NCBI GenBank assembly: GCA_035702585.1
Contig: DASSQI010000002.1
Location: 59-64,058 of the forward strand
DNA from: Anaeromyxobacteraceae bacterium
GTDB taxonomy: Bacteria > Myxococcota > Myxococcia > Myxococcales > Anaeromyxobacteraceae
DNA: 64,000 nucleotides
Direction of reading: 5' to 3'
Shown here: piece after piece, positions 8,266 through 47,805 of the stretch
Position numbering within the stretch: position 1 is the stretch's first letter
Layout of the letters: every line of letters begins with the position of its first letter
Translations under genes and position numbers: made by a program
The notes under the pieces: generated by a model
The model's database searches: none
The model's input: only the letters and a program-made list of their open reading frames with translations
What the model was told of the DNA's origin: nothing

Positions 8266-9588
8266 ATGGGTGAGCGAGTCACGATCGTGGGCGCCGGGCT
8301 CGCGGGCAGCGAGGCCGCGTGGCAGCTCGCGCAGGCGGGCGTCGACGTGGAGCTCCGCGAGATGAAGCCCGAGCGGCGCTCGCCGGCGCACCACCTCGAC
8401 GGCTTCGCCGAGCTGGTCTGCTCGAACTCGCTGCGCTCCGACAACCCGGAGAACGCCGTCGGCCTGCTGCACGAGGAGCTTCGAAGGCTCGGCAGCGTGG
8501 TCCTCGCGTGCGCGGACGCGACGCGCGTGCCCGCCGGTGACGCGCTCGCCGTCGACCGCGAGCGGTTCAGCGCGCTCGTGACGGCGCGCCTGCGCGAGCA
8601 CCCCCGCATCCACGTCGTACCCGGCGAGGTCGCGACGCTGCCGCCGCCCCCCGCGCTCGCGATCGTCGCCACCGGGCCGCTCACGTCCGACGCGCTCGCC
8701 GCCGAGATCGCGGCGCTCTGCGGCGGCAAGCTCCACTTCTACGACGCGATCGCGCCGATCGTCTCGGCGGACTCGGTCGACGCCACGATCGCCTTCCCCG
8801 CCTCGCGGTACGGCAAGGGAGACGGCGCGGACTACCTGAACCTGCCGTTCGACGAGCCGCAGTATCGCGCGTTCGTGGAGGCGCTGCTCTCGGGCGAGAA
8901 GGTCGCGCCGCACGGCTTCGAGGAGCCGAGGTACTTCGAGGGCTGTCTACCCATCGAAGTGATGGCGGAGAGAGGGCCAGACGTGCTCGCTTACGGCCCC
9001 ATGAAGCCGGTCGGCCTCGAGGACCCGCGGACGGGCCGCCGGCCCTTCGCGGTGGTGCAGCTCCGGCGCGAGGACGTCGAGGGGACCGCGTACAACATGG
9101 TCGGCTTCCAGACGCGGCTCACGTGGGGCGAGCAGAAGCGCATCTTCCGCGAGCGCGTCCCCGGTCTCGCGAGCGCCGAGTTCGTCCGGCTCGGGCAGAT
9201 CCACCGGAACACGTTCGTCGAGGCGCCGCGCGTGCTCTCCCGGGACCTGTCGGTGCGGGAGCGGCCGCACGTGTTCCTCGCGGGACAGATGACCGGCGTC
9301 GAGGGCTACGTCGAGTCGACCGCGTGCGGCCTGCTCGCCGCGCGCGCGGTGCTCGATCGCGTCGCGGGGCGCCCCTTCCGGCCGCCGCCCGCGGCGACGG
9401 CGATCGGCGCGCTCCACCGCCACCTCACGGGCGACGCGCACCCCGCCGATTACGAGTACCAGCCGACGAACGTCGTGTTCGCGCTGTTCCCGCCGCTGCA
9501 GGGTCGCTTTCGTGGAAAGCAGGCGCGCAAGGCCGCCCACGCGGAGCGCGCGCGCCAGGAGATTCGGTCATGGCTCTCCGCAGCCTGA
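8266..9588 (+). CDS. trmFO: methylenetetrahydrofolate--tRNA-(uracil-5)-methyltransferase TrmFO
   Basis: 440 aa; FAD motif [41 protein letters not shown]. Confidence 0.9.
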
Positions 9589-11216
9589 TGCACGTGGTTC
9601 GCCGCCGGTCGAGCACCGCCGCTCTCCGGCGAGGCATCCCGCTGATCGGGGCCGCCGCGGCGCTCCCGCTGGTCGCGGCCGTCGCGGTGCTTGCGCTGTC
9701 GTGCACGCGCGCGGAGCAGTCGCGTCCCGCGGGGCTCGGCAAGCCGATCGCGTCGGGGGCCGTCGTCGCCGTGAAGGCGTCGCCGAGCGGCGCGTTCGTC
9801 GCGTGGCTCGGCGCGTGCTCCAAGGTCACGAGCGGCATCGTCGCGCTGGGCACGCAGTCCTGTGAGCTGCGCGTCGCGCCCACGGGCGGCGCGGCCACCG
9901 GCAACGGCGGAGAGGGGCTCCTCGTCGCGAAGGGCGTGACGACGCTGCCGCACGGCTTCGTCTGGGCCGACGGGCAGACGCTGCTCGCGCTCGAGTCGTA
10001 CGAGCACGCCGCCGGCGAGGGCACCCTCGTCGTCTGGGACGGGTCGACGCGCCGCCTCGCCGACAAGGTGCGCTTCTACGCGGCGACGCCGGACGGCCAG
10101 CGGGTGGGCTGGGTCGCGAACGGCGTGCTCTCCGTGCTCGACCGCGCCGGCGACCGCGAGCCGGTGGTGATGGGAGACGACGTCGCGACGTTCGAGTTCG
10201 GGCCGCCCTCGACCGCGCCGATGGTTCTGCTCGCGCGACGCCAGTCGAGCGCCGGCGGAGACCTCCTCGTCCTCGCCGCGGGCAAGCTCACGCCGGTCGC
10301 GACGCGCACCGCGGAGTACCGCTTCTCTCCGGCCGGAGACTTCGCCTACACCGTCCGGGAGGGCGCGACCGACGCGCTCACGTTCGCGCGCGCCTCCGCG
10401 CCGAAGGCGGCGGTCCCGGTGCGCCGCAACGTGCACTCCTTCACGTTCGCGCCCGACGGATCCGCGATCGCGTTCGTCGCCGACGTCGCCCCCGGGCGCC
10501 AGGGCGATCTCTGGGTCGCGCGCGTCGCCGGCGAGGGTGCGCGGCCGGGCGCGCCCGAGAAGGTCGCGAGCGGCGTGGGTGAGGTCCGGTGGGCGCCGCG
10601 AGGCGGCGCGCTCGCGTGGCTCGCCGAGTTCGAGCCCGGGATGCGGTCCGGCGCGCTGACGGTACGGCCGGCTCCGGGCGCGGCTCCCGTGCAGCTCGCC
10701 TCCAAGGTGTCCGCCTACGAGTTCTCACCCGACGGCGGAGCCGTCGCGTTCCTCGAGCACGTCGTCCAGGGCGGCTACTCCGTCGACCTCCGTCTCGCGC
10801 GCCTCGGCGCCGACCCGCGGGCCGAGACGGTGGCCCGCGGCGTGTTCGGGTTCGACTTCGCGCCCGAGGGCGACTTCCTCTACTTCCGCGACGCCTGCGT
10901 CCAGAACGGCGAGTCCTGCGACCTCGAGCGCATCCCTGCGGCGGGCCTCGCTCCCGGCGCGAAGCCCGAGCGGCTCGCGCAGGCGGTGAAGAGCTTCGAC
11001 TTCGACCGCCGCAACGCGGAACGGCTCCTCCTCGCGGTGCAGCCCCCTGGGGGCAAGCCGGTCGGGATCTCCGTCTGGCGCGCCGGCAAGCTCACCGACG
11101 TCGATCGCGGGTTCGTGCCTGGCACGGGCACGTTCCTCGCGCCGGACTCCTCGCGGCTCGTCTACGCAGTACAGGAGAAGGGCCGCGAGGGCGTGTACCT
11201 CGCGGAGCTGAAGTAA
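9570..11216 (+). CDS. lipoprotein, probably beta-propeller (TolB-like repeats)
   Basis: In frame in ORF 9123-11216; start [13 protein letters not shown]..., lipobox VLALSC; repeated F-SPDG/APDG-type blades ([39 protein letters not shown]); overlaps trmFO end by 19 nt. Confidence 0.7.
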
Positions 11217-16967: not shown

Positions 16968-17000
16968 GGACGCCTTGTAGCGCGGTCGCACCCCGCCCGG

Positions 17001-17052
17001 CGACGCCTGCGCCGGAGCACGCCCGGGGACGCCTGCGCCGGAGCACGCCCGG
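17001..17052. repeat. 2 x 26-bp tandem repeat in sirtuin/mgtC divergent intergenic region
   Basis: gacgcctgcgccggagcacgcccgg occurs twice (17002-17026, 17028-17052) separated by one g. Confidence 0.85.
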
Positions 17053-17247
17053 CGCGAAGGATCCCGCGCGCAGCGGGCGCGAGGTGGATCCGGCGCGATC
17101 CGGCGACCTCGGCGCCGACGCCTGGTGGGGTGGATCCAGTGCCGCGCAGGCGCGGAAGGGCCGATAATCGTGGCAGCCGCGGAAGCTGCTGGCGGGCGGA
17201 CCATGACGGTCCTGCACGCCGGCGGATCGCGGCACGGGAGGCAGCGG

Positions 17248-27726: not shown

Positions 27727-27782
27727 ACGAGCGCGCCCGCTCCGGCGCGCGCTGACGAGCGCGCCCGCTCCGGCGCGCGCTG
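27727..27782. repeat. 2 x 28-bp perfect tandem repeat, each unit a hairpin
   Basis: acgagcgcgcccgctccggcgcgcgctg twice; internal inverted repeat agcgcgcc/ggcgcgct; partial third copy at 27846-27862. Confidence 0.9.
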
Positions 27783-35086: not shown

Positions 35087-35617
35087 GTGGACCGCCCCGC
35101 CACCGCCGCCTTCCTCGGCATGAGCCTCGACGGCTTCATCGCCGGGCCTCATGACGAGCTCGACTGGATGGAGCGCGGCGGTGGCCCGCCGGAAGACCAC
35201 GGGTTCAATGCGTTCTTCGCGTCGGTCGACCAGCTGCTCATAGGGAGGCGCACATGGGAGGTGGTGGGGCGCTTCCCGGCGTGGCCTTACGAGGGGAAGC
35301 CGGTGGCGGTGCTCACGCGGCGCCCGGGAGAGACGCGCCACGGCGAGCGGCTCCTGTCGGGCGAGCCCGCCGAGGTGCTGAAGGCCCTCGGGGACGGCGG
35401 CGCCCGGCGCGTTTACGTCGATGGCGGAGCGGTCGTGAGCCAATTTCTGGCCGCCGGCCTCCTCGACGAACTCACCGTCTCGATCCTGCCGGTGGTGCTC
35501 GGCGCCGGTATCCCGCTCTTCCAGGCGACCGGCCCTGAGCGCTGGCTTTCGCTGGCGGCCCACCAGGCGTGGCGTAGCGGGCTCGTGCAACTCAGGTACG
35601 AGCGGCGCGACACGTGA
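35087..35617 (+). CDS. dihydrofolate reductase family protein (RibD C-terminal-like)
   Basis: 176 aa, GTG start; SLDGFIAGP, QLLIGRRTWE, VYVDGGAVVSQFL, LDELTVSILPVVLGAGIPLF. Confidence 0.8.
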   Translation: MDRPATAAFLGMSLDGFIAGPHDELDWMERGGGPPEDHGFNAFFASVDQLLIGRRTWEVVGRFPAWPYEGKPVAVLTRRPGETRHGERLLSGEPAEVLKALGDGGARRVYVDGGAVVSQFLAAGLLDELTVSILPVVLGAGIPLFQATGPERWLSLAAHQAWRSGLVQLRYERRDT

Positions 35618-35715
35618 AGGTGCACGAGCTCGCTCGCCGCCGCGGCTGAAGTCGCCCTCAACGGGTCGCGCTGTCAGCTTCCGCCCGCAGCGTCCTCTTC
35701 CCTTCGGCGGTCGGA

Positions 35716-35759
35716 GAAGCAGCCCACTCCACCCGCCTTCAGGGAAGCGGCCCACTCCA
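35716..35759 (+). promoter_or_regulatory. 16-nt direct repeat pair upstream of the GG-leader peptide gene
   Basis: gaagcAgcccactcca (35716-35731) and gaagcGgcccactcca (35744-35759), 28-nt period, second copy ends 20 nt before ATG. Confidence 0.35.
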
Positions 35760-35779
35760 ACCCGGAACGAGGAACGACG

Positions 35780-35989
35780 ATGCGAAAGGTCAGGACTGCA
35801 GGCGCCCGCAGCAGCGAGATCCGCGCGGTTTCCGACGAGGATCTCGGCGGAGTGACCGGCGGGCTGAAGTGGGTTCCCGGCACCAAGAACCCCGACGTCG
35901 TCGACGCGCGGGGAGGAAAGTTCGACTTCGGATTCATCACCGTCACCCTCGACCGGAGTGGGAAGGTGAGCAGCGTGTCCTTGAGGTGA
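35780..35989 (+). CDS. small peptide with double-glycine-type leader (bacteriocin/RiPP-like precursor candidate)
   Basis: 69 aa; RBS gaggaa 5 nt before ATG; leader MRKVRTAGARSSEIRAVSDEDLGGVTGG then 41-aa Cys-free core; own terminator downstream. Confidence 0.6.
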   Translation: MRKVRTAGARSSEIRAVSDEDLGGVTGGLKWVPGTKNPDVVDARGGKFDFGFITVTLDRSGKVSSVSLR

Positions 35990-36084
35990 GATACGCGCCG
36001 GCAGTAGGGCGCGTCGACCGCGGCGAGACGATCGGACGAGGATTCCGGACGTCGAAACCGTACAGGGCCCGGGAAGTCGAAACC

Positions 36085-36109
36085 AAAGGCCCGGCCACGC
36101 CGGCCTTTT
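36085..36109 (+). terminator. rho-independent terminator after the GG-leader peptide gene
   Basis: aaaggcc(c)ggc-cac-gccggccttt hairpin (one bulge) ending in tttt. Confidence 0.6.
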
Positions 36110-36247
36110 CCGTTCGGCCCGTACCGTCGACTTGGCGCGCCTCCCCGGACAGGCGGTCGGGCATGATCCGCACCCGACGCGCACCAACCTCGCGGGACGT
36201 GCCTCCCGGCTCGATGCTCGACAGGCTACTTTCCTGTCTACGGGGAG

Positions 36248-36724
36248 GTGTACGTGGCCCACCGTGCTTTCGTCGCAGTGCTGCTCCTTGCCATTGGTTG
36301 CGCTCACAACGCCAGGCGTGAGCCCGCTGTCGATTCCGTGGGCGGCGAGCAGGCCATCCGCGCCGTCGAAGAGCAAGAACGGCTCGCGGTGCTCCATCGG
36401 GACTTCGCTGCGCTGGAGCGTATCTGGTCCGACGACTTCATCGTGAACACGCCACGCAGCGACGTCAGCCCGAATCGGAAGGCGGTGCTGGAGCTGTTCC
36501 GCAGGGGCGTCGCGAACTACCGCACGTTCGAGCGCAGGATCGAGGTGATCCGCGTCTCGGACGACCACGCTGTCGTCATGGGGAGCGAGACGGTGCAGCC
36601 CGCAGGCGATGCTGTGGCGGATCGGGCGGTCGAGCGGAGGTTCACGAACGTCTGGAGGCGCGAGGACGGGACATGGCGCCTGTGGGTACGTCACGCGAAT
36701 GTTCTGCCGCCCGCGAGACATTAG
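36248..36724 (+). CDS. NTF2-like (SnoaL/DUF4440-type) lipoprotein
   Basis: 158 aa, GTG start after ggggagg; lipobox LLAIGC; DFAALERIWSDDFIVNTP...FTNVWRREDGTWRLWVRH typical of DUF4440 fold. Confidence 0.75.
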   Translation: MYVAHRAFVAVLLLAIGCAHNARREPAVDSVGGEQAIRAVEEQERLAVLHRDFAALERIWSDDFIVNTPRSDVSPNRKAVLELFRRGVANYRTFERRIEVIRVSDDHAVVMGSETVQPAGDAVADRAVERRFTNVWRREDGTWRLWVRHANVLPPARH

Positions 36725-36948
36725 GCCCGTGCCGCGTGGGATGTGGCCGACGCGGCCGACGCGCAGAAACTCTCGATGGCTTCGGTGAGGTTCAGAGGGC
36801 CGGAAGGCGCACGAAATACCTCGTCCTCGACCCAGCAGAAAAGCCAGTCGCTGTCTGAGCGGTCAACTTTGATTTCACCGAACGCGATGCCGCTCAGGTG
36901 AGTCCGTGCAAGGTCGTCGATATCGAGCGTCCAACCGGGATTGTCCAC
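36721..36948 (-). CDS. small acidic hypothetical protein directly downstream of the HNH nuclease gene
   Basis: 75 aa, GTG start 32 nt after HNH stop, TAA stop; 21 of 75 codons end in A/T (unusually many for this window); Asp/Glu-rich. Confidence 0.5.
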   Translation of the reverse strand: MDNPGWTLDIDDLARTHLSGIAFGEIKVDRSDSDWLFCWVEDEVFRAPSGPLNLTEAIESFCASAASATSHAARA

Positions 36949-36980
36949 GATGTCGAGGCCTGCACGTCATCGTCTGCGCG

Positions 36981-38753
36981 TCATCGCCTGCGGTGAGACG
37001 ACACCTCGGCCCACGTGAGAGCCCCGGGCCTACGCGCGTGGTGCAATCGGTACCGACCGCCGCGCGGCGGCCCTCGTGATGTCGCGGAATCGTCACGGCG
37101 CTCGGGGAGGTCGCCGGGGCTGTCTGCCGTGCGCCGCCCCAGCGGTGGCGCCATGGCCGCATCGACCGTCGGCGGGTGCGGCTGCGCTCGACTACTGCTC
37201 GCCGTCTGATCCTTCTGTAACGGCCGGCTTGCCTCGCCGGCGGCCCTCGCAGGCTGTTCCTTCTGCGACGACGGGCTCGCCTCCACCGCGCGCGCCGCGG
37301 TAGTGAACCGTTTCATCCACTCGAACCCGAACTCCTGCTCCGCCGCGAGCTTGTTATGCGTTCGGCAGAGGACCCGAACGTTGTCGACGGTGGACGGACC
37401 GCCGCGTGCCCTCGGAATCTTGTGGTCGAACTCGAGCTGCTTGCGGGACCCGCAGATGCCGCCCGATGCGAGCGGCCATTGGCAGCATCCCCGGTCGCGT
37501 TTGAACACGTCGCGCTTCACGTGCGCCGGGATGTAGCCGGGCTGCTTCGAGGCGCGCGCCTCGGCGCGCGGGTTGCGCACGAGACCCTTGCGAACGGCGA
37601 GGTGCTCCAGAACGAGGTCGAGCCCCGTCTCGAGGATTCGCGCGAAGTCGGCCGACTCTCGGGAATGCGAGAGCGCGTCGCGCGCCGCCTTCAGCTTGTC
37701 CACGAAGCTCTTCGACACCGTGATGTGGAGCCTGCGCAGCTCGGCGCTCAGCACCTCGAGCATCTCCGCAGCCGACGCGAGCTGCTGGGGCGCGGGAATC
37801 GTCGCGCCGGTCGCCGCCGCCATGCCGGACGCGGCGTCTCCATCGTCGACCGCGGGCATCCATTCGGCGTGCAGCGGCGCGGAACCGGGGACCCCCGGGT
37901 CGCTGCCGGGGAGCTGTGAGGCGCAATGCGAGACCAGCCGGGCGTGACTCGAGGGCTGGGAAGCGCTCGAGGGCTGGGAAGCGACTGCCGAAAGGTGCGC
38001 GGCGGAACCCGAGGGCTGCGGAGCAGAACCCGAGCGCTGCGGAGCTGAACCCGAGAGCGGTGAAGCGAAACCGGAGGCGCTCGTTGCGGAACCCGACAGC
38101 GGCACACCGGCCGCGATACCCGGCAAATTCGTATGTGGCTGATCGGCGCGCCGAGCATCGTCGCGCAGAGGCTCCGGCGAATGGGGCGCGTTCGGACCGG
38201 AACTGCCTGCCCCGGCAACATTGCCTGCCCCGGTGAATCGCCCGATCGGCCTCGCTGCTCCGCCGAGCGTCGCCGTTACGGTCGCCGCGCCCGCGAACGG
38301 GGTGGGATTTTTCGCCGCGACGTTAGGCGTCGCGATCGGCCCGAACACCGCGCGCTGCGGCACGGGCCTGTCCGGCGACAGCTCGGCGACGATCTCCTTC
38401 GCCTCGGTCTTCGACGCACCGTAGAACCGAGGCAGGACGTGCGCGCGGTTCTCGGGCGTGAGGACCTTCGCGAGTTCGACGACGGTCATGATGCACAGGC
38501 GCCCATCGCGGAGCGGCTCGATGATCTCGGGGAACTTGTGCAGGAGCTTCGCCGCGGTCGCGCGGTAGTAGGCCGACCCGCTGGAGAGCCGCAGCTCGCG
38601 GTGGAGGAAGTAGTAGAGGCTCGAGTGGCCGAGCTGCATCCATAAACGGTGCCGATCGAAGTCCACGAGCGCGAGCAGGAACTCTGCCATTGAGTGGTGC
38701 TCCTTGCGGAGCAGAGCTTCGAGCTTGAGGTATTGCTCGCGTGCATTGGACAT
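36981..38753 (-). CDS. HNH endonuclease with DUF222-like N-terminal domain
   Basis: In ORF 36981-38984; start MSNAREQYLKLEALL; HNH core CCQWP...GICGSRKQLEFDHKIPRARGGPSTVDNVRVLCRTHN; repetitive Ser/Gly/Pro linker; long Arg-rich tail of doubtful reality. Confidence 0.85.
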   Translation of the reverse strand: MSNAREQYLKLEALLRKEHHSMAEFLLALVDFDRHRLWMQLGHSSLYYFLHRELRLSSGSAYYRATAAKLLHKFPEIIEPLRDGRLCIMTVVELAKVLTPENRAHVLPRFYGASKTEAKEIVAELSPDRPVPQRAVFGPIATPNVAAKNPTPFAGAATVTATLGGAARPIGRFTGAGNVAGAGSSGPNAPHSPEPLRDDARRADQPHTNLPGIAAGVPLSGSATSASGFASPLSGSAPQRSGSAPQPSGSAAHLSAVASQPSSASQPSSHARLVSHCASQLPGSDPGVPGSAPLHAEWMPAVDDGDAASGMAAATGATIPAPQQLASAAEMLEVLSAELRRLHITVSKSFVDKLKAARDALSHSRESADFARILETGLDLVLEHLAVRKGLVRNPRAEARASKQPGYIPAHVKRDVFKRDRGCCQWPLASGGICGSRKQLEFDHKIPRARGGPSTVDNVRVLCRTHNKLAAEQEFGFEWMKRFTTAARAVEASPSSQKEQPARAAGEASRPLQKDQTASSSRAQPHPPTVDAAMAPPLGRRTADSPGDLPERRDDSATSRGPPRGGRYRLHHARRPGALTWAEVSSHRRR

Positions 38754-38951
38754 GGGCGAAGCATTGCGCTTGCCTCTGACAGAATTATATCGACGAGGTG
38801 GGTCAATTGCGCACCGGGCCGGCGACTCATGCAGATCGGCGCAGGACGTGCATGTCGCAACTTCAACCAGTTGAAGCGCACGGATAGTGAACCTGATGGC
38901 CTGAGTCGCGCGGCAGGACATCGGCTCGCCGTGAGCCTCGCGCGACGCGCG

Positions 38952-39030
38952 TGCACGGGTCGTACACTCCGCGCTCAGCTGCACGGGTCGTACACTCCGC
39001 GCTCCGTCACGGGTTCGTACACCTCCTCGC
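38952..39030. repeat. about 2.8 x 28-bp tandem repeat upstream of the HNH gene
   Basis: tgcacgggtcgtacactccgcgctc(agc/cgt) at 38952 and 38980, degenerate third unit cacgggttcgtacacctcctcgcg. Confidence 0.8.
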
Positions 39031-39070
39031 GAGTGACTTCCGTATGGCCGGCGCGCGGTACGATGCCCGA

Positions 39071-39247
39071 ATGGCGAGGCGCACCTGGGTGATCCTGTTG
39101 ACGCTGGCGACCATCGTCGCCCTGTGCTTCGTCTGCACGCCCGCCGTCCGGGAGTTCATCGCGGTGGACAGGTGCATGGACAGCGGTGGCTGCTGGGTGC
39201 GGAGCCGCCACAGGTGCGAGTACGCCCAGGCCAACTGCAAGCCGTAG
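39071..39247 (+). CDS. possible small Cys-rich membrane protein
   Basis: 58 aa within ORF 38951-39247; MARRTWVILLTLATIVALCFVC then 5 further Cys; no RBS obvious. Confidence 0.35.
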   Translation: MARRTWVILLTLATIVALCFVCTPAVREFIAVDRCMDSGGCWVRSRHRCEYAQANCKP

Positions 39248-39454
39248 GACGCCTCGACGGAGCGAAACCGCTATCCGGTACCCCCCGGCGCGCACCGCGG
39301 GCGTTGCGGGCGCGGAGCGCACGAAGGCTCCATCGCGGTTCTCTTGCGGATGATGCCCGGCGTCGCCCCCCGCGATCCCTCTCGGTAGCGGCCCAGGACG
39401 TCGGCCGGCGAACCGTTCTCGCGCATCTTGGCGTCGCGACCGCGATGATGCGGC

Positions 39455-39652
39455 TCAGTCGTTGCGCGGCATCGAGTTCACCGCGGCCTGTCCGAGATTC
39501 GACCCCGTGTTCACGAGGGCGCCGATTCCTGCCACAGCGCGCTTCAGGTTCGTCGCGGCGCGCTGAAAAACCTCGGCTCCGGCGTAGAACGCGATGCTCG
39601 CCACGATCTCCGCGCTGCTGGAGGAGCGCCTCAGGTACGACTTGATGTCCAT
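39455..39652 (-). CDS. small hypothetical protein downstream of the STAS gene (same strand)
   Basis: 65 aa from internal Met of ORF 39455-39673 (MDIKSYLRRSSSS...), ggggga upstream; no family recognised. Confidence 0.45.
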   Translation of the reverse strand: MDIKSYLRRSSSSAEIVASIAFYAGAEVFQRAATNLKRAVAGIGALVNTGSNLGQAAVNSMPRND

Positions 39653-39716
39653 CTCGGTTCCCCCTTGAAACAAGCTGCAGCGCTGCGGAGCGCGCTCGCG
39701 GGCACGGCGCGCGCCG

Positions 39717-40010
39717 TCACGAGGTCGCGTGGTCGTTCGCAGCCTTCGACAGCAGCTTCAGGATGCGGTGATGCCGCTCGCACAGCCCGCGGAAACGCAG
39801 GTCGAGCGCATCGCCCCGTGCCGCGGGCAGGAGCGCCGCGAGACCTGTCGGCGTGATCTCGCGCGCCTTGCTGAAGTCGATCACGACGTTCGCTGGACCG
39901 AGCTTCGACGGTGGCAGCACGAGCAACAATCGCGCGGCAGCGGCGTCGTCGAAGACACCCTGGACCGAGATCACTGCGTCGCGACCGCTCTGAGTGATTG
40001 CGATGGCCAT
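39717..40010 (-). CDS. STAS-domain anti-sigma-factor antagonist-like protein
   Basis: 97 aa; SpoIIAA-like layout: ISVQGVFD, VVIDFSKAREITPTGLAALL. Confidence 0.8.
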   Translation of the reverse strand: MAIAITQSGRDAVISVQGVFDDAAAARLLLVLPPSKLGPANVVIDFSKAREITPTGLAALLPAARGDALDLRFRGLCERHHRILKLLSKAANDHATS

Positions 40011-40146
40011 CGAACCTCACGTCGAACCGGGAGTTGCCAACGTGAGAACGCAGCGGAGGGGCGGCAACTCGCGACTTGCTCTGCGTCATGCTTGAGCCCT
40101 TCTGGGAGCGATTAGGTTCAGGCGACGCGCTAGCGGTGTTCACCTC

Positions 40147-40230
40147 GACGGCTCGCGACGGCTCGCGACGGCTCCCGGCGGCTCGGGACGGCTCCCGACG
40201 GCTCGCGACGGCTCCCGGCGGCTCGGGACG
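40147..40230. repeat. 8.4 x 10-bp phased tandem array (higher-order 40-bp unit x 2)
   Basis: gacggctcgc gacggctcgc gacggctccc ggcggctcgg gacggctccc gacggctcgc gacggctccc ggcggctcgg gacg; between divergent STAS and kinase genes. Confidence 0.9.
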
Positions 40231-40371
40231 CGCATCCCCGCGGCAAACGTTCGCTGACATCCGACGGCAGGCCGACGAGCATCGGACCCCAGGCCGACCA
40301 GCATCGGACCGCGACCGCGGGTCCCTCGTCCGCCTGCGTGTATGCTGATGATTGAAGATTGACGCTCCGGC

Positions 40372-42120
40372 GTGATTTGGCGCAAGGCAAACGCCTTCAC
40401 CATGGGACCCCCGCGTGTTACGACGGGGTTCGCGCATGACGATCGATTCGCCGTGACGGCAGACAGCATCTACATCGGCGAGACCCATCCCGCGCTGACA
40501 CAGCGTCGCCTCCGCACGTCCGTGCTGCTGGGCATCGCGACGGTGCCGCTCGTGGCCGCAGCGCTGCTCCTCGGTCATCAGATGCACCAGCCGTGGCCTG
40601 CGCGGTACTACCTCGCGGTCCACGTCTCGGCGGAGACGCTGGTCACCGTGGTCGCGTTCGCGACGTTCGCCGTGCAGTGGTACGCCGCAGGGGCACGTCT
40701 CAACGACGCCCGCGCGAGATTCATCGGGTCCGCATTCCTGGCTGTCTCGCTCCTCGAGATCGCCCACACGCTCGCGTTCCCGGGAATGCCTGGGCTGGTC
40801 TGGCTGGACAGCTCGACCGAGAGGGGAATCGTCTACTGGATCTCGGCGCGGCTCTGGACCGTTCTCGCGCTCCTCGCCGCTGCTGCCATCCCTCCGGACA
40901 GCAAGTCGCGAGCGCTTCGCCGCGACGTGCTGCTCGCGTGGACGATCGCTGGTGTCGTGACTGTTCTCGCCGTGGACTACCTGTGGATCTCACGAAGACC
41001 GGTGTTCTTCGTCGAGGGCATCGGTCTCACGCCATTGAAGAAGGGTCTCGAGGCGCTCGTGGCCGCAGCGGCGCTCGTCGGGGCGGCCGTGTACCGGAAG
41101 ATTGCGCGCAAGCGCGGCGACCGCAGCGCTGCCGATCTGTCGGCCGCGCTATGGCTCACCGTCCTGTCGGAGCTCTGCTTCACGCTCTACGCGCGCGCCT
41201 ACGACAGCTTCAATCTCCTCGGGCACGTGTACCTGCTCCTCGCGTCGTACGGCGTCTTTCACGCGCTGTTCTCGGACGCGGTGCTCCGCCCATACGAGCG
41301 CCTCGGCGCGGCGAGCCGCGAGCTGGCGGCGAGCAACGACCAGCTGAAGAGTCTGCAGCGGCACGTCGAGGAAGAGCTTGCCGTCACGATTCGCAACCTC
41401 GAGTCGCTGCAAGTGCAGCGCGAGGATCTGCTGCGAGCGGTCTCACACGACTTGAGAACGCCGCTCCAGATCGTCCTGCTCCAGGCGGAACGGCTGTCGA
41501 GGTGTGGCGGAGACGCAGCGCGGACCGTGAACGCCGCCCAGAGCATCATCGCCGCTGGCCGACAGATGGCGGCGATGATCCAGGATCTCGTCGATTCCGT
41601 TCACCTCGAGAGCGGAACCGTCAAGGTCGCGCCACAGACGCTTTCGCTCCCGGCTTTCGTCGCGGACCTCGTGCATGTCGCGAGGGGGCCACTCGACACG
41701 GGCAGGGTCGTGCTGGAGCTGCCCGAGGACTTGCCGGAAGTCGAAGCGGATCCCACCAGGCTGGCGCGCGTGGTCCAGAATCTGCTCGGGAACGCTCTCA
41801 AGTACTCGGCCCCCGGAACGCCGGTCGCAGTCCGCGCATCCGCGTCGGAAGACGAGATCGCGATCTCCGTTGCGGACCGTGGCGCCGGGATTCCTGCCGA
41901 GCACGTTCCTCACCTGTTCGAGCGGTTCTATCGTGGTGAGCACAGCGGCAAGTCGGATGGGCTCGGGCTCGGGCTCTACATCTCGCGCATGATCGTCGAG
42001 GCCCACGGCGGGCGCATCTGGTGCGAGAGCGAGGCGGGTCGCGGCAGCACGTTCAACTTCACGCTGCCGCTCGCGACTGCCGGCCAGGGCGCACGCGCCG
42101 GCGAAGCTCCGCGCGCCTGA
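40372..42120 (+). CDS. sensor histidine kinase with multi-pass membrane sensor domain (MASE3-like)
   Basis: 582 aa (GTG; alternative ATG at 40402); about 7 hydrophobic helices, then H-box VSHDLRTPL, N-box LLGNALKYS, GLGLGLYISRMIVEAHGG. Confidence 0.85.
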   Translation: MIWRKANAFTMGPPRVTTGFAHDDRFAVTADSIYIGETHPALTQRRLRTSVLLGIATVPLVAAALLLGHQMHQPWPARYYLAVHVSAETLVTVVAFATFAVQWYAAGARLNDARARFIGSAFLAVSLLEIAHTLAFPGMPGLVWLDSSTERGIVYWISARLWTVLALLAAAAIPPDSKSRALRRDVLLAWTIAGVVTVLAVDYLWISRRPVFFVEGIGLTPLKKGLEALVAAAALVGAAVYRKIARKRGDRSAADLSAALWLTVLSELCFTLYARAYDSFNLLGHVYLLLASYGVFHALFSDAVLRPYERLGAASRELAASNDQLKSLQRHVEEELAVTIRNLESLQVQREDLLRAVSHDLRTPLQIVLLQAERLSRCGGDAARTVNAAQSIIAAGRQMAAMIQDLVDSVHLESGTVKVAPQTLSLPAFVADLVHVARGPLDTGRVVLELPEDLPEVEADPTRLARVVQNLLGNALKYSAPGTPVAVRASASEDEIAISVADRGAGIPAEHVPHLFERFYRGEHSGKSDGLGLGLYISRMIVEAHGGRIWCESEAGRGSTFNFTLPLATAGQGARAGEAPRA

Positions 42121-42124
42121 TGTC

Positions 42125-42158
42125 GACGGCAGAAGCTCGCTGACGGCAGAAGCTCGCT
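42125..42158. repeat. 2 x 17-bp tandem repeat 5 nt after the kinase stop
   Basis: gacggcagaagctcgct twice, then partial gacg. Confidence 0.85.
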
Positions 42159-42384
42159 GACGCGCCGGATCAGGCAGAGCCAGCGAGAACCCATTTCCGA
42201 TGCCGCGGCTCGACCGCGCTTTGGGGCGGGCCGAGCAGCTGGCGCCTCACGGGCCTGCCGGCAGCGCGCCGCCCTCCACGCAGGCGAGCGCTCCTGTCTC
42301 GCGTTGGGTCGTGTCCCGTCTTGGCGGGCGCGACCAACGTTTGATCCACAGACGCAGAAGTCCACGGCGTCGCCTGAGGGGCAC

Positions 42385-43725
42385 ATGAGCCGGTTGGGAT
42401 GCGCTGCGCTGGTCTTCGCGCTTGCCTCGTCCTCGTGCGGCGGGAGTGACTCGAAAGGAACGGCTCCGCCGTCGCCGTCGCCGTCGCCGTCGCTCTCGCC
42501 GAGTCCTGGTCCATCGCCATCGCCGAGCCCTACGCTGTCGCCCGCTCCGAGCCCGTCGCCGTCACCGAGCGCGTCACCGACACCGAGCCCGTCACCGACA
42601 CCGAGCCCGTCACCGACTGCGACGCCAGAGAGCCCAGGCTCGACGGTCTGGAGCGTGCTGCTCGACGGGTCGGATCCCGCTGCAACCGTGACGAGGGATG
42701 GACGCGTCGCCGTCCTGAGCCTCGCGCCATCGGGAGCGCCGCGCCTGATGTCTCTGGATCCCGTCAACGGACAGGTCGCGGGCCAGCGGACCTATGGCCC
42801 CAACGAGATTCCGCTCGATCGCGTGACGGCAGACCTCCGGTCGGACGGCGTCATCGCGTCCGGCATCGTCGAGCGCTCGAGCAGCGTCAACATGCGCGAC
42901 ATCGCCCTTCGTCTCGACGGAGCCGGTGCCCCGATTGAAGAACTGTGGCGAGCGCAAGATCTCCACACGAGCCCGGCGAGCGCCGCTGATGGCGCGGTGG
43001 CTTACGGCTCGCAGGCCGCAGGCGTTCCGGACGGGCAGATCGTGCTGCGCCTCCCAGACGGATCGCTCCGCACGTTGCTCGGCGGAATCATCCCGCGGTC
43101 GGTCGCGTTCGCGGGGAACGGCGACGTCGTCGCCGTGTTCGTCGGCGTCGGACTCGTTGCTCCGCCCGAATGGCAGGGCACCTGGCTGGCCCGCTTCGGG
43201 CGCGACGCATCGCTCAAGTGGCGATGCGCGATCCGCGCGACGACGACCGATGCACCCCACCTCGCCGTCGCGACCGACGGGACGATCGTCTTCACTCTTC
43301 GTCCCGCGAACGTCGGCGAGTCCGTGAACGTCACCTGGGGCCAGATTGAAGTGAGCGGCGTGTACTCGCTCGTCGTACTGGCCGCGAGCGGCACCGGTGA
43401 ACCGCGATGGGCGCGGGGCTTCGGCGACGCCACGATCGCGTACTCCGCGGCGATCGATCCTGAGCGCGGCATCGCGCTGGTCGCGGTCGCACCCGCGGGG
43501 ACTTGTCCTGTAATGGCGGTGGAGCTCCTGGCATTCGACGCGAGCCGCCGTTGGCGGCGCGAGTTCGCGTGCGGCGGTGGAACGATTGCCGCCGCGAGCG
43601 CCGTCGCCGGCAGGAACGCGCCAATCTACGTCGCAGGTGTCGTGAGCGGCTCGTTCGACTTCGGGAAGGGCGCCGTGACGGCTGCATCTGGCGGGAGCCC
43701 GTTCGTGGTGAGACTCGTTCCGTAG
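42385..43725 (+). CDS. lipoprotein with long Pro/Ser linker
   Basis: In ORF 42304-43725; start MSRLGCAALVFALASSSC (lipobox); about 50 aa of (S/T)P repeats, then probable beta-rich domain. Confidence 0.75.
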   Translation: MSRLGCAALVFALASSSCGGSDSKGTAPPSPSPSPSLSPSPGPSPSPSPTLSPAPSPSPSPSASPTPSPSPTPSPSPTATPESPGSTVWSVLLDGSDPAATVTRDGRVAVLSLAPSGAPRLMSLDPVNGQVAGQRTYGPNEIPLDRVTADLRSDGVIASGIVERSSSVNMRDIALRLDGAGAPIEELWRAQDLHTSPASAADGAVAYGSQAAGVPDGQIVLRLPDGSLRTLLGGIIPRSVAFAGNGDVVAVFVGVGLVAPPEWQGTWLARFGRDASLKWRCAIRATTTDAPHLAVATDGTIVFTLRPANVGESVNVTWGQIEVSGVYSLVVLAASGTGEPRWARGFGDATIAYSAAIDPERGIALVAVAPAGTCPVMAVELLAFDASRRWRREFACGGGTIAAASAVAGRNAPIYVAGVVSGSFDFGKGAVTAASGGSPFVVRLVP

Positions 43726-43812
43726 ACGTCCGCGACGAGCACGCGACACCCCTTCGGTCCCGAGCCGCAGAAGGCGGGAACGGCAAGAGATTCGCATCGG
43801 GAGATCGGCACC

Positions 43813-44286
43813 ATGAGATGGATTGCGCTTGCGGCGGCTGCCATCGCGGTGCTCGGTTGCGGGAGCGATTCGTCGGACAGGGCGCCTTCTGGGCAGCAGC
43901 AAACGACGGCTCAGCTGTGCGCCGCGATCGCCGTCCACTACAGGGCCGCGTTGGACAGAGCGGTCGTCTGCGATCCCGCCGCGACCGGCGCCTGCATCGC
44001 TGGAGGGCCCTCGTTCGACACGGCCGTGCCCGTGCCTGCATCGGGGCCGAGCGGAATGACCGACGCGCTCTGCTTCTGCCCGCCGGGACCGGCGGTCACT
44101 CCCGCTGGCAAGGCGACCCTCGATCCGATCATCGGACGGTACAAGGCGGCGGGCTGCTCGATCGCGTGCCCGTGTCCCACGCAGGCCCCGGGGACCGTCA
44201 TCGTGCCCGTCTGTACGCCCTCTGCGGCTGGAGCGGGGCAATGCACGTTGCAGTACCGCGCTGCTGACGGTAGCAATCTTCGTTGA
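43813..44286 (+). CDS. Cys-rich lipoprotein, hypothetical
   Basis: 157 aa; MRWIALAAAAIAVLGC lipobox; 10 further Cys. Confidence 0.7.
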   Translation: MRWIALAAAAIAVLGCGSDSSDRAPSGQQQTTAQLCAAIAVHYRAALDRAVVCDPAATGACIAGGPSFDTAVPVPASGPSGMTDALCFCPPGPAVTPAGKATLDPIIGRYKAAGCSIACPCPTQAPGTVIVPVCTPSAAGAGQCTLQYRAADGSNLR

Positions 44287-44448
44287 GCGGCGTCGGAAAT
44301 TCGAGGTGCGCCGTCCGGTTTTCGATGCGCGCCGACGTGCGACGCGAGATCGGACGCGCGGTTAGCGGTGGCATGCGCGATGCTGGGTCTCGTGCTCATC
44401 GACGCGGTCGAGGAGCCAAGCCGCCGCAACGCCGACGCGTGAGGGACG

Positions 44449-44940
44449 ATGAGCTCGAGGGTCTTGGCGTTTGCGGTTCTCGCGATGGTCGCCTGCGGGA
44501 GCAGCCACGGGGGATTACCGCCGGTTTCGGATCTGGGCTCGAGACACATCGTCGTCCCGCCGACGCCCGCGTATTCAGGGGGGTGCAAGGTCTCGGAGAT
44601 GCAAAGGGTGGTCGCAACCGAGGCCGACTGGCAGCAGACCTGGGCGGAGCTGTTCGCCTGTCAGTCGCCGGCACCTCCTGTCCCGCCTATCGACTTCACG
44701 CACGAGATGCTGGTCCTCGCAGCGGTCGGAGCGCGCGGCAGCAGCGGGTACTCCGTAGCGATCGAGGGCGCAGCGGTCCGCAGCGACGGTGCGCTGCACG
44801 TGAACGTCGTCGAATACCGACCTGGGCGCGGGTGCGCGGTCGCGACGGTGATCACGTATCCGGTCGCAGTGGCGCGGGTTTCCCGTGTCGACGTCCCAGT
44901 GGCCTTTCACGATCGCGTGCAGACGCTGGACTGCGAATGA
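44449..44940 (+). CDS. PrcB-like (protease complex subunit PrcB C-terminal domain) lipoprotein
   Basis: 163 aa; RBS gaggga; lipobox LAMVAC; WQQTWAELF...PPIDFTHEMLVLAAVGARGSSGYSVAIEG pattern recalled from PrcB_C family. Confidence 0.65.
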   Translation: MSSRVLAFAVLAMVACGSSHGGLPPVSDLGSRHIVVPPTPAYSGGCKVSEMQRVVATEADWQQTWAELFACQSPAPPVPPIDFTHEMLVLAAVGARGSSGYSVAIEGAAVRSDGALHVNVVEYRPGRGCAVATVITYPVAVARVSRVDVPVAFHDRVQTLDCE

Positions 44941-44996
44941 ACACCGTTGCGCGGAAGGGGCGCGAACGACGTCGTCCTGGGCATGGGGGGTGCGCC

Positions 44997-45270
44997 GTGA
45001 ACAAGTCGATGCTCGGACTCGCCGTCGCCGTGTTGATCGCGTGTTCAGGGGCGGGGAGCGATGACACGCCGCGCGCGGAGGCGGACGCGATATCTCAGCC
45101 AACGGGGTTCGTCGGAGCGCGGGACGGGTACGCTCGATCCCGACGGCGTCCTGCACGTGAGGCTCTTCTCGACCTGGACGTGCGGAGGAATCACGACCGC
45201 ACGGCAGGCCATCTTCACGATGAGCCGCGTGCCCGCGCTGGCGGCTCACGAAAGCTCGTGGCTGCTGTAG
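44997..45270 (+). pseudogene. lipoprotein gene split over two frames (frameshift or sequencing error)
   Basis: Signal/lipobox VNKSMLGLAVAVLIACSGAGS in frame of ORF 44283-45281; protein-like, G/C3-rich continuation TGTLDPDGVLHVRLFSTWTCGG...SSWLL in ORF 45061-45270 frame. Confidence 0.45.
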
Positions 45271-45319
45271 CAGTGACCTGACCGTACCGTGGACGGCCCG
45301 GGCCTCGCGTGGATCCCGG

Positions 45320-45781
45320 CTACTTCTTCTTCGGCGGTTCCTTGTAGAACCCCACCGCGCACACCTGGTCGCCCACCTTGGTGACGAGGCTGATCTTCGG
45401 CTGCTGGTCGGAGCTTCCCGGCCGCGCGTACATGTACTCGACCTCCGCGATCTCGCCCGGTCGAGCGACCTTCCTGATCTCCGCCCCAAACGGTTTTCCG
45501 GCCGAGTCCTTCAACGCTCCCTGATCCACTCCGATCCGCTTCGGATTGGCGCCGTGCGCGGACACCTTTCCGTCCGGGCCGCTGCAGAACGGATACAGAT
45601 CGCGGTCGTTGTACTCGCCGCGCGTGATCTTCGAGAGCGTCCCGGTCTTGTCCGTCTTCACGTCGGCTACGACCTTGTCGAGCATCGCCTTCGCTTCGGC
45701 CCTCGTGCCGTATTCTTCGGCTGCGATCGCGACGGTCGCGGCGAGCGCCGCCAGAGCCACGGTCCAACGATACTGGCGCAC
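45320..45781 (-). CDS. periplasmic single-Cache-domain protein
   Basis: 153 aa; signal peptide; NDRDLYPFCSGPDGKVSAHGANPKRIG...DSAGKPFGAEI...VCAVGFYK matches stand-alone sCache proteins. Confidence 0.8.
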   Translation of the reverse strand: MRQYRWTVALAALAATVAIAAEEYGTRAEAKAMLDKVVADVKTDKTGTLSKITRGEYNDRDLYPFCSGPDGKVSAHGANPKRIGVDQGALKDSAGKPFGAEIRKVARPGEIAEVEYMYARPGSSDQQPKISLVTKVGDQVCAVGFYKEPPKKK

Positions 45782-46082
45782 GTCGAACCCCCTTGAGCGT
45801 GCCTCGTCCGACCGCTCGGCTGCTCTGCGATCGCGGACGGGCCATGGCGCGTGGTCTAAGCACGATGCCGCGAACCGCGCCGGGAATCCGGGCTCGGCAG
45901 GAAGTGGTACTCGGCGTCAACCCGCTCGCGATGACCTTTTCAACTTCGGGCGTGAGGTGGGTTCGGCCGTCACGCCAACGAAGCCACTGGCGATCCGCGC
46001 CCGCCGGCGAGCTGCTGCATCAGCCGCTGTACGAGAGACGACCTCCGCTCGCGCGCTCCGGACGCGCACCCGGCGAGAGCCG

Positions 46083-46346
46083 TCACATCGCGGTGATCGG
46101 GTGGTGTCCCGAGGACGACCGGAACTTCGCCACCTCGCCGCGCGCGTTCCGTCCTGTTCCGCCGCGGAGCAACAGCCAGGCTCCGAGCAACAGCTCGCCC
46201 GCCGCTATCGCCTGCGCGGTCGCCGTCGGCTTGCGCAGCTTGTACAGCGACTTCCCCCAGAAGCTGGTCCAGCCCTTGCGGTCCAGGAACTGCCACGCAG
46301 CGTCCGCGACGGACGCAGCGCCGAGCAGGCGCACGATCATCGTCAT
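46083..46346 (-). CDS. small hypothetical protein
   Basis: 87 aa; GGAGGG RBS before ATG; nearly all codons G/C-ending; no family recognised. Confidence 0.6.
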   Translation of the reverse strand: MTMIVRLLGAASVADAAWQFLDRKGWTSFWGKSLYKLRKPTATAQAIAAGELLLGAWLLLRGGTGRNARGEVAKFRSSSGHHPITAM

Positions 46347-46403
46347 CCCTCCCCGCCGAAAGATAGGCGCGCCGACGTCGGGCGCAGCCTCTGAAGTGCT
46401 GCT

Positions 46404-47231
46404 TCAGCGGGGAGTCCACACCTCGACGCAGCATGCGCCCGTCACGCGCGTCGCGTCCGGCAGGCGGTGGGCGCGCTCCGCGATCGCGGCTGCCGCGAGG
46501 TGGTGAGCCGACGGGCCCATCGCGACGAGCGCCTCGCAATCGGATCGCGTCAGCACCATCTCCCACCTGACCTGCCGTGACTCCGCGCGAGCGAAGCCGG
46601 GAGACAGCGCCGCGTCGAGCCGCGTCTGCTTCTCCGCGTCGACCCGGATGAGGTCGAAGGCCGTCCGGAGCTCCGCGAGGTGATCGGGCAGCGGAGTGGC
46701 GACCAGCAACGCGCCGTCGTCGCGGACGATGCGGCGAAGCTCTGCGCCGTTCCGTGGCGCGAACACCAGCATCGCGAGCGCCGCGACGCCATCGGCGACC
46801 GGAAGCGTCCGGCGCGTGTCCGCCACGACCGCCGAGACTCTGGGGTGCGCACGTGCGGCGCGGCGAGCAGCCGCGGCCGACACGTCGATCGCCAGACCCG
46901 CGGGTGTCGGCAGCGCGTCGAGGACTTTCGAGAGGTGCCGTGCCGTGCCCGAGCCGAGCTCGACCGCGATGCCCGGGCCGGCGCGCTGCGCGACCATCGC
47001 CAGCTCTGCCGACAGCGGGTCGAAGTGGCCGGCGCTCAGGAACGTGTCGCGTGCGGAAACCATCGCGTCCGTATCGCCGACGCGAGCACTCCGCCCGACG
47101 ACGAAGTTCACGTACCCGGTTCGCGCCAGGTCGAACGCGTGGCCGGCGCCGCAGCGAAGCGTGCGCCCCTCGAGCGTCAGGTGATCACGGCAGCAGGGGC
47201 ATTGCAGGACGGCGACGACCTCGGGGTGCAT
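46404..47231 (-). CDS. RlmA-like 23S rRNA (guanine-N1)-methyltransferase
   Basis: In ORF 46404-47777; start MHPEVVAVLQCPCC; N-terminal Zn finger C-CC...C-GH, GYVNF, DAMVSARDTFLSAGHFDPL, SAM site VELGSGTA. Confidence 0.8.
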   Translation of the reverse strand: MHPEVVAVLQCPCCRDHLTLEGRTLRCGAGHAFDLARTGYVNFVVGRSARVGDTDAMVSARDTFLSAGHFDPLSAELAMVAQRAGPGIAVELGSGTARHLSKVLDALPTPAGLAIDVSAAAARRAARAHPRVSAVVADTRRTLPVADGVAALAMLVFAPRNGAELRRIVRDDGALLVATPLPDHLAELRTAFDLIRVDAEKQTRLDAALSPGFARAESRQVRWEMVLTRSDCEALVAMGPSAHHLAAAAIAERAHRLPDATRVTGACCVEVWTPR

Positions 47232-47353
47232 CTCGTTCTCCCGAGTTGCCGATAGCTTCAGATGTAGCCGGCGGTCAACGATCGTCGCGATTCTACCGGT
47301 CAGGGCCGTGCCCCGGAGCGAGGTCCTTTCGTTCACATTCCGCGGTGCCGGCG

Positions 47354-47719
47354 TCAGGCGATCGGTGACGAGCCGCCCGCCGGGTCTGCGAACCGCGTCA
47401 CCGCCTCGAGCAGCTCCGAGAGCTCGAACGGCTTGCGAAAGACGAGGTTCGCGCCCGGCACGTGCAGCACCGAGCTCGCTGTCACGACGATGACCGGTAG
47501 CCGGGCGTACTGCGGCACCTTCCGGAGCTGCCGGATGAGCGTCGCGCCGTCCATGTGCGGCATCATGAGATCCGTGACGATGACGGCCGGCGAGGTCGAG
47601 GCGAGCGCGCGGAGCGCCGCCTGCCCGTGTTCGGCGGGCACGACGTCGAACCCCTCGGCGCTGAGCTCGTCGACCATGATCTCCCGGATGTCCGGGTCGT
47701 CTTCGACGACGAGCACCAT
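47354..47719 (-). CDS. single-domain response regulator (receiver only)
   Basis: ORF 47354-47749, probably from MVLVVEDDPD; phospho-acceptor VTDLMMPHMDG, VVTA, KPF. Confidence 0.8.
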   Translation of the reverse strand: MVLVVEDDPDIREIMVDELSAEGFDVVPAEHGQAALRALASTSPAVIVTDLMMPHMDGATLIRQLRKVPQYARLPVIVVTASSVLHVPGANLVFRKPFELSELLEAVTRFADPAGGSSPIA

Positions 47720-47805
47720 GTGTGATTGCACAGCCCTGATGGTGTGCACACCGCGGCGAGTTCGCCGCGTGGCGCACGCTCGATCGGCCGGTCAGTGCCA
47801 GCCGC

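Follow-up and report, generated by a model that had tools for sequence, protein, structure and literature searches.

What is encoded by a 69-codon open reading frame (ORF) that stands apart from any transporter gene in the DNA of an Anaeromyxobacteraceae bacterium? The ORF lies at 35780-35989 on the forward strand of a 64,000-nucleotide stretch of contig DASSQI010000002.1, referred to in the following as the window, which belongs to a metagenome-assembled genome (MAG) of 3.53 Mb in 285 contigs, ~90% complete. A previous interpretation made from the letters of the window (the sequence-only reading) had described an orphan precursor peptide with a double-glycine (GG) leader, and had placed a ribosome-binding site, a GG motif, a pair of direct repeats and a hairpin in and around the 69-codon ORF; each of these elements was found at its assigned position. 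Our analysis suggests that the ORF encodes the precursor of a leader-dependent peptide that is cut and exported by an unlinked peptidase-containing ATP-binding cassette (ABC) transporter (PCAT), and that the product is probably unmodified. We assign this interpretation a probability of roughly 70%.

The predicted protein consists of a leader, MRKVRTAGARSSEIRAVSDEDLGGVTGG, followed by a core, LKWVPGTKNPDVVDARGGKFDFGFITVTLDRSGKVSSVSLR. The ATG has no in-frame start codon upstream and is preceded, at a distance of 5 nt, by a Shine–Dalgarno-like GAGGAA at 35769-35774 (+). High-GC DNA gives many spurious ORFs, and the surrounding 6 kb contains 73 ORFs of at least 30 aa, as would be expected if this were merely a chance open frame in GC-rich intergenic DNA and no gene. 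The GC content at codon positions 1, 2 and 3 of the ORF is 0.59, 0.52 and 0.84, respectively, which is the pattern expected for coding DNA in a genome of 72% GC. A word-index protein search produced two close homologues, both on short metagenome contigs: P0001 (locus L005), which is 99% identical to the window peptide and has the same neighbouring genes, and P0002 (locus L004), which is 80% identical. Comparison of the window ORF with its L004 homologue gave a ratio of non-synonymous to synonymous substitution rates (dN/dS) of 0.32 and a single indel, which is 3 nt long and in frame. Nucleotide conservation between the two loci extends from ~110 nt upstream of the ATG, through the ribosome-binding site (GAACGAGGA is kept in L004), to a few bases past the stop codon, and the flanking genes differ, showing that the conserved unit is the upstream region plus the ORF. 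Together with the 43 homologous clusters found across phyla, as described next, the codon pattern, the dN/dS value and the in-frame indel leave the chance-frame interpretation effectively refuted already.

When 1.84 billion representative proteins were searched exhaustively with HMMER, 45 matched at E<1e-3. Two of these, P0015 and P0033, were long, repetitive proteins and were rejected as false positives. The remaining 43 clusters (at 50% identity) are genuine family members, mostly 58–112 aa in length, that align end to end. Judged from these comparisons, ORF 35780-35989 is a real gene of a previously unmodelled, widespread family, held by Bradyrhizobium, Nitrobacter, other Alphaproteobacteria, a Thiohalobacterales MAG, an Actinomycetota MAG and the GC-rich MAG of the window. 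The kind of system is well known; what is new is the coherent family of ~43 clusters, with a core that is covered by no model in Pfam, NCBIfam or PHROGs.

The core peptide comprises residues 29–69 (41 aa; 35864-35989, +, including the stop codon), contains no Cys and has a net charge of +3. It bears the family motif (L/M)KW..G..N.DV(I/V)DARGG...T.D..G..SS, and the consensus for the family core is MKW..G..N.DVIDARGGQ....G...T.D.NG..SS. Ten positions are at least 90% conserved: the two glycines of the GG motif and, in the core, W31, V40, D42, A43, R44, G45, G46 and G61. The core is hydrophilic and is the best conserved part of the protein. AlphaFold2 modelling on the family alignment gave a mean predicted local distance difference test (pLDDT) score of 71 and predicted a three-stranded β-sheet in the core at residues 46–50, 53–57 and 63–68, with pLDDT values of 85–89. 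A Foldseek search of the PDB returned no match to the predicted fold at E<=0.001, a profile search against PDB sequences returned nothing below E = 0.05, and no paper mentioning the motif DVIDARGG was found in the literature searched.

The leader, delimited from the sequence and the family alignment, comprises residues 1–28 (35780-35863, +) and ends in ...AVSDEDLGGVTGG. It has V at position -12, D at -8, L at -7, V at -4 and GG at -2/-1 (G27 and G28). In the family profile, the corresponding frequencies are 0.89 for L-12, 0.80 for E-8, 0.76 for L-7 and 0.78 for V-4, with the consensus R.L...EL..VSGG, and the two glycines are conserved at 98% and 96% across the 45 aligned sequences. The recognition consensus of ComA is Leu(-12)-X3-Glu(-8)-Leu(-7), the pockets of the LahT peptidase accept Val-4 and Leu-7, as well as Leu-12, and only the last 13 leader residues are needed for cleavage (PMC6363468). 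By its sequence, the window leader fits this rule for C39 peptidases: positions -12, -7 and -4 are hydrophobic, -8 is acidic, and GG follows. AlphaFold2 placed a helix at residues 19–24 of the leader (positions -10 to -5). The earlier identification of a GG-leader precursor is borne out by the conservation of both the GG and the -12/-8/-7/-4 pattern across the family.

The curated leader models matched other members of the family better than the window peptide, for which the only Pfam match was Lactococcin at E = 0.27. TIGR01847 (bacteriocin_sig) was matched by six family members, one of which (P0008) scored above the cut-off, at 16.8 vs 15.7 bits; most matches to this model are lost in the HMMER filters because it is only 15 positions long. 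P0008, P0014, P0022 and P0023 are longer proteins with an extra N-terminal segment that matches NHLP leader models below threshold, the best E-values being 6e-7 for TIGR03793 and 3e-6 for TIGR04351. The same core is found behind short GG leaders and behind these long NHLP-like leaders. That a single core occurs with both of these established PCAT leader types argues strongly, by comparison, for an N-terminal part that serves as a removable leader for export.

The sequence-only reading had proposed that the exporter would be found by searching the rest of the genome. This search gave one Peptidase_C39 (PF03412) match, at 12660-14798 on contig C32 (131 bits). The statement that the window lacks a PCAT is not contradicted, as the only C39 match of the genome search lies elsewhere; the window was not scanned separately. 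The first 150 residues of the C32 protein are most like the LahT protease domain (6mpz, E = 3e-34), and its Gln11, Cys17, His90 and Asp106 align with the oxyanion and catalytic residues of LahT (Gln21, Cys27, His101 and Asp117), so that the catalytic residues are intact. The PCAT (C32:12660-14798; best NCBIfam match TIGR03796, 707 bits) is encoded together with an HlyD-like adaptor (C32:10879-12660; TIGR03794 is second in its list of best matches), a second ABC subunit without the Cys in its N-terminal domain (C32:14785-16812; best match TIGR03797) and, on the opposite strand, a TolC-like protein (C32:16813-18429). The whole export locus spans C32:10879-19890 (locus L006, 9880-18887). Contigs C32 and C2 have equal GC content and matching tetranucleotide signatures, which correlate with the genome mean at 0.996 and 0.998.

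Just past the C32 cassette are genes for three tandem paralogous GG-leader peptides of 71–76 aa. In one of them, the leader MTKTLTAPMKLADEMLSTVAGG is followed by HDHG...NNSGTIIINVNTSA, and all three end in ...DVDVSVDASNNSGTITINVNTSA. A leaderless, degenerate stretch at L006 17513-17740(-) may be a fourth copy. No NCBIfam model matched these peptides, and a search of 40 related genomes gave one weak match (E = 6e-4) but no convincing relative. Over the last 14 leader residues, the window peptide and the C32 peptides have D-10, E-9, L-7, V-4 and the GG in common, with conservative changes at -12, -11 and -3. Homology between the cores was considered and rejected: hhalign aligned only 18 leader columns, with a probability of 3%.

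We then surveyed the family in other genomes, using the pattern DVIDARGGQ, derived from a sub-alignment of nine sequences, against one genome per prokaryote species. This yielded 23 loci, with a bias toward Alphaproteobacteria that is inherent in the pattern, in Bradyrhizobium, Nitrobacter, Xanthobacteraceae, Hyphomicrobiales, a Thiohalobacterales MAG and an Actinomycetota MAG. At three loci (L013, L017 and L029), the peptide gene lies within 1–2 kb of an HlyD+PCAT(+ABC) cassette. At the other 20, no PCAT was present within the DNA examined, up to 10 kb on each side; five of these loci carry tandem pairs of peptide genes. Each of the five unlinked holder genomes tested carries a high-scoring PCAT at another site. 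Of 121 evenly sampled genomes from the family around Bradyrhizobium, 5 have the peptide and 18 have a strong C39 domain (E<=1e-25). All five holders are among the 18, which corresponds to a hypergeometric probability of ~4e-5 at face value, a figure that overstates the evidence, as the genomes are related and the counts are not independent. The proposal that the peptide is exported by a transporter encoded elsewhere gains support from this co-occurrence, from the PCAT-adjacent homologues in three genomes and from the intact PCAT on C32.

The same survey bears on another explanation, namely that the product is a small intracellular protein, or is processed in some way other than by a PCAT, so that the GG is incidental and the protein works uncleaved. 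Consistent with this explanation, no transporter is linked in 20 of the 23 loci, the Nitrobacter copy is located between the housekeeping genes dprA and plsY, and the window member matches no curated leader model. However, the GG is near-invariant and the -12/-8/-7/-4 pattern is kept over 43 clusters, and short GG leaders are exchanged for NHLP-like ones in front of a constant core. Moreover, members directly adjoin PCAT cassettes in three genomes, and all holders tested have a PCAT, compared to 15% of the sampled genomes. We consider an intracellular or uncleaved protein quite improbable.

Taken as an exported peptide, the 69-aa precursor would be translated from its own small, putative transcription unit, the coding status of the ORF being established by the comparisons above. 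By the recognition rule of LahT and ComA, leader residues -12 to -4 would form a short amphipathic helix that docks V-12, L-7 and V-4 in the hydrophobic groove of the C39 domain. The C32 PCAT would cut after Gly28, and the 41-residue core would be exported with the help of the HlyD-like adaptor, the Cys-less second ABC subunit and the TolC-like channel. The released product would most likely be an unmodified, hydrophilic, mildly cationic peptide, folded as a three-stranded β-sheet and acting outside the cell.

Several observations weigh against this interpretation, in addition to the relatedness of the genomes in the co-occurrence count. The window peptide has no match at E<=1 among the NCBIfam models, which include the bacteriocin-type signal model that the sequence-only reading had suggested for a check. 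None of the three C32 cassette proteins reaches the equivalog cut-offs (TIGR03794, TIGR03796 and TIGR03797). Because the window and C32 cores are unrelated, recognition of the window peptide by the C32 PCAT is assumed, and because the genome is only ~90% complete, a further PCAT may exist. No sigma-70-like promoter was recognised upstream of the ORF, and the U-tract of the downstream hairpin is only 4 nt long. Finally, no gene for a small, immunity-like membrane protein is adjacent to the peptide gene in the window or in L004, and none is conserved across the loci, which is unusual for a bacteriocin.

The sequence-only reading had also supposed that modification genes would be found elsewhere, which would make the ORF the precursor of a ribosomally synthesized, post-translationally modified peptide (RiPP), with a core modified by an ATP-grasp, radical SAM or LanM enzyme before cleavage and export by the PCAT. 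RiPP precursors are often distant from their enzymes, and the conserved K, W, D, T and S of the core could serve in cross-links. Some members have NHLP-like leaders, which are typical of RiPPs (PMC2887384). Furthermore, ten family members weakly match TIGR04497, a putative ATP-grasp target RiPP, at best with E = 2.5e-4 and 21 bits against a cut-off of 32. Kinship with TIGR04497 was nevertheless rejected: the matches are all sub-threshold and extend only over the leader end and ~14 residues into the core, and the window peptide gives no match to TIGR04497 or to PF27893 (GRASP_targ_2). Searches of five genomes, the window's own among them, and of the sample from its phylum turned up no true TIGR04497 member. 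The supposition of distant modification genes found no support in the surveyed loci either. No modification enzyme is a conserved neighbour at any of the 23 loci, which represent several lineages, and none adjoins the peptide gene in the window or in L004. No neighbouring gene family is conserved across lineages, and the neighbours follow genus-level synteny, so nothing points to linkage with a gene for modification or immunity. The core lacks Cys and is predicted to fold into a β-sheet on its own, and it is the most conserved part of the protein, whereas cores behind NHLP leaders are usually hypervariable. The absence of a conserved modification-enzyme neighbour makes an unmodified peptide more likely, and we regard a RiPP as an unlikely alternative.

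The mature peptide may be antagonistic, like a bacteriocin, or may act as a signal. The hydrophilic, conserved core, the syntenic orphan positions and the lack of an adjacent immunity gene would leave room for a signalling role, while the tandem duplicates and the bacteriocin-like company of the peptide gene in L029 would point the other way. In that locus (Bradyrhizobium jicamae; 8600-10162), three unrelated GG-leader peptides are encoded in a row beside the HlyD–PCAT cassette. L029 and L013 (1735-2659) also both encode, divergently from HlyD, a signal-peptide protein of ~150–200 aa (...SSAGVL...), the two being similar by eye. These proteins may be accessory or immunity proteins; beside the C32 cassette, nothing comparable was seen. 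In Nitrobacter and its relatives (L012, L021-L025, L027 and L028), the peptide gene has a fixed position between dprA-like and plsY/dihydroorotase-like genes, which is an unusual stability for a bacteriocin-type gene.

By analogy with the ComC/BlpC pheromones of streptococci, the peptide could be a diffusible signal of Gram-negative soil bacteria rather than a toxin: an unmodified, PCAT-exported mini-protein of ~40 residues, found across phyla, whose invariant DV(I/V)DARGG loop would bind a conserved receptor. We offer this as a speculation that is far more likely to be wrong than right. If true, it would account for a core so well conserved, for orphan positions that stay stable and syntenic in Nitrobacter and Bradyrhizobium, and for the missing immunity gene. 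In any case, the core is unusually conserved and hydrophilic for PCAT cargo, so that the family offers a tractable candidate for a new effector or signal secreted by soil bacteria.

Like the established GG-leader substrates of PCATs (ComA, LahT, PCAT1; TIGR01847), the window peptide has a leader of ~28 aa ending in GG, with hydrophobic residues at -12/-7/-4, an acidic residue at -8 and a short helix predicted before the cut site; an intact PCAT with its Gln, Cys, His and Asp is present in the genome, and relatives are found beside HlyD–PCAT cassettes. It differs from them in falling below detection by the curated leader models, in being unlinked to a transporter, and in having no immunity gene beside it and a core that is hydrophilic and best conserved rather than hydrophobic and hypervariable.

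The three-gene NHLP export cassette is defined by TIGR03794, TIGR03796 and TIGR03797 (Haft et al. 2010, PMC2887384), and the precursors of the NHLP/Nif11 system are scattered far from their exporter (PMC2887384). The C32 cassette has these three models as its best or near-best matches, some family members have NHLP-like N-terminal extensions, and the window precursor is likewise far from the exporter. On the other hand, the leader of the window peptide is 28 aa, compared to ~70–80 aa, and matches neither the NHLP (TIGR03793) nor the Nif11 (TIGR03798) model, the cassette falls short of the equivalog cut-offs, and no enzymes for thiazole/oxazole-modified microcins (TOMM) or lanthionine were seen near any member. 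With class II bacteriocins and microcins the peptide shares a GG leader, a small, Cys-free, probably unmodified product of charge +3, tandem duplicates in several genomes and a tripartite exporter with a TolC-like channel. It differs from these in lacking an amphipathic or hydrophobic membrane-active segment and an adjacent immunity gene, and in having a core that is conserved across phyla and a gene that is syntenic within Nitrobacter and Bradyrhizobium. Such a core and such synteny are more easily reconciled with a conserved partner or receptor than with a toxin in an arms race. TIGR04497/PF27893 resembles the family only in the weak profile similarity of ten members, which score at most 21 vs 32 bits; the window peptide is unmatched, and there is no conserved ATP-grasp neighbour.

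The region upstream of the ORF that is conserved with L004 by alignment (35670-35779, +) is a probable promoter and 5′ untranslated region (UTR). The gene on the 5′ side of this block encodes a RibD_C protein in the window and a Lactamase_B protein in L004. A scan of 35400-36400 against Rfam gave no family above its gathering score; the sole sub-threshold match was to the plant miRNA MIR164 at 35570-35641, outside the conserved block. The predicted fold of the 5′ UTR was no better than that of shuffled sequence (z = -0.6).

Within the upstream region are the two direct repeats that the sequence-only reading had considered a plausible binding site for a response regulator. When extended to 24 nt, they comprise TCGGAGAAGCAGCCCACTCCACCC at 35711-35734 (+) and TCAGGGAAGCGGCCCACTCCAACC at 35739-35762 (+), the second copy being 83% identical to the first. 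Their 16-nt cores (35716-35731 and 35744-35759) are 15/16 identical, have a period of 28 nt and end 20 nt before the ATG. Regulation through direct repeats is common among genes for GG-leader pheromones and bacteriocins, as in the ComE, BlpR and PlnC systems, and two 24-nt copies just 5′ of the ribosome-binding site, at a spacing compatible with the helical phase, might form a two-site operator for a response regulator or other dimeric regulator of the peptide gene. However, L004 carries the unit once, against twice in the window and in the near-identical L005, even though both flanks are conserved. The 22-nt repeat units have no other site in the genome at <=3 mismatches, the PCAT locus included, and the 10-mer core of the repeat occurs 11 times, compared to 15 occurrences expected from composition. 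Tandem Repeats Finder detected 669 two-copy arrays with periods of 18–45 nt in the 3.5-Mb genome, 17 of them on the window's contig. Since tandem duplications are so frequent, intergenic repeat pairs in this genome should not be taken as operators without evidence of conservation. Furthermore, the response regulator encoded beside the L004 peptide gene, whose homologue in the window is at 47354-47749, is a stand-alone receiver without a DNA-binding domain. An operator is unlikely on these grounds, and the proposal of a response-regulator site found no support. The likeliest reading of the pair, which lies in the promoter or the transcript's leader region, is another recent tandem duplication of the slipped-strand kind and not a conserved operator. 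Other examples of short two-copy tandem duplications in the window are found at 16994-17054, 27727-27782 and 40147-40230.

Downstream of the ORF, a terminator scan identified a GC-rich hairpin followed by TTTT at 36087-36109 (+), a possible weak intrinsic terminator. The hairpin itself, CCGGCCACGCCGG, is at 36091-36103, ~100 nt past the stop codon, and is followed by CCTTTT. There are three terminator-like sites in the region, compared to 0.4 expected, two of which are the same hairpin on both strands. The fold of the hairpin region was no better than that of shuffled sequence (z = -0.9), and the hairpin is not conserved in L004, where the sequence diverges a few bases past the stop codon. Between the stop codon and the hairpin is a second pair of direct repeats, GGACGTCGAAACC (36047-36059) and GGAAGTCGAAACC (36072-36084), which are 12/13 identical with a period of 25 nt and are not conserved in L004.

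The peptide family was not found in 40 relatives of the window's bacterium (24 from the same family and 16 from the same order), nor in 300 genomes representing 137 genera of the same phylum. The stretch around the window gene has a GC content of 0.66–0.70, compared to 0.72, and none of the neighbours of the gene in the window (RibD_C, DUF4440, DUF2845 and HNH) is found near family members elsewhere. In L004, the gene 3′ of the peptide gene is the homologue of the receiver gene at 47354-47749, showing that the window holds ~11 kb extra between the two. This extra DNA (36000-47350), with its lower GC content, is possibly an inserted island; it includes the genes for a 667-aa HNH-domain protein (36981-38984, -) and a sensor histidine kinase (40372-42120). 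This distribution and context indicate that the peptide gene is accessory, lies in a variable region and was probably gained by horizontal transfer.

Gene finders and cluster-based mining routinely miss GG-leader peptides that are encoded away from their exporter. A motif scan suggests that the window's genome has at least three more GG/GA-leader peptide genes, on contigs C138 and C179. With the window peptide and the three peptides on C32, this brings the candidate PCAT substrates to ~7, in four families. The single PCAT of the genome probably serves at least four unrelated peptide families on four contigs, and scattered substrates for one PCAT would appear to be the rule in this organism. 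The region C138:19850-20382 (+) contains two tandem paralogous GA/GG-leader ORFs, one with ...KLADEQMKDVSGA followed by SGPLKEALETIKL... and the other with MDTNRSGIRKLVDEQMKGVCGG followed by SPVITFLRVVELLKTV...; both end in ...LPTP..KMLKGKTPA. They are unlinked to a PCAT and are likely to be further substrates. On C179, a small ORF at 2391-2660 (-) has a good GG leader, ...IEPLREEDLSAVSGG, followed by a 37-aa core, RVAMGEFVVVKRLDKASTNLFKACASGKHLDTGVIVT. This core weakly resembles an internal segment of Hcp/TssD, the tube protein of the type VI secretion system (TIGR03344, positions 59–93), at a sub-threshold E = 5e-4.

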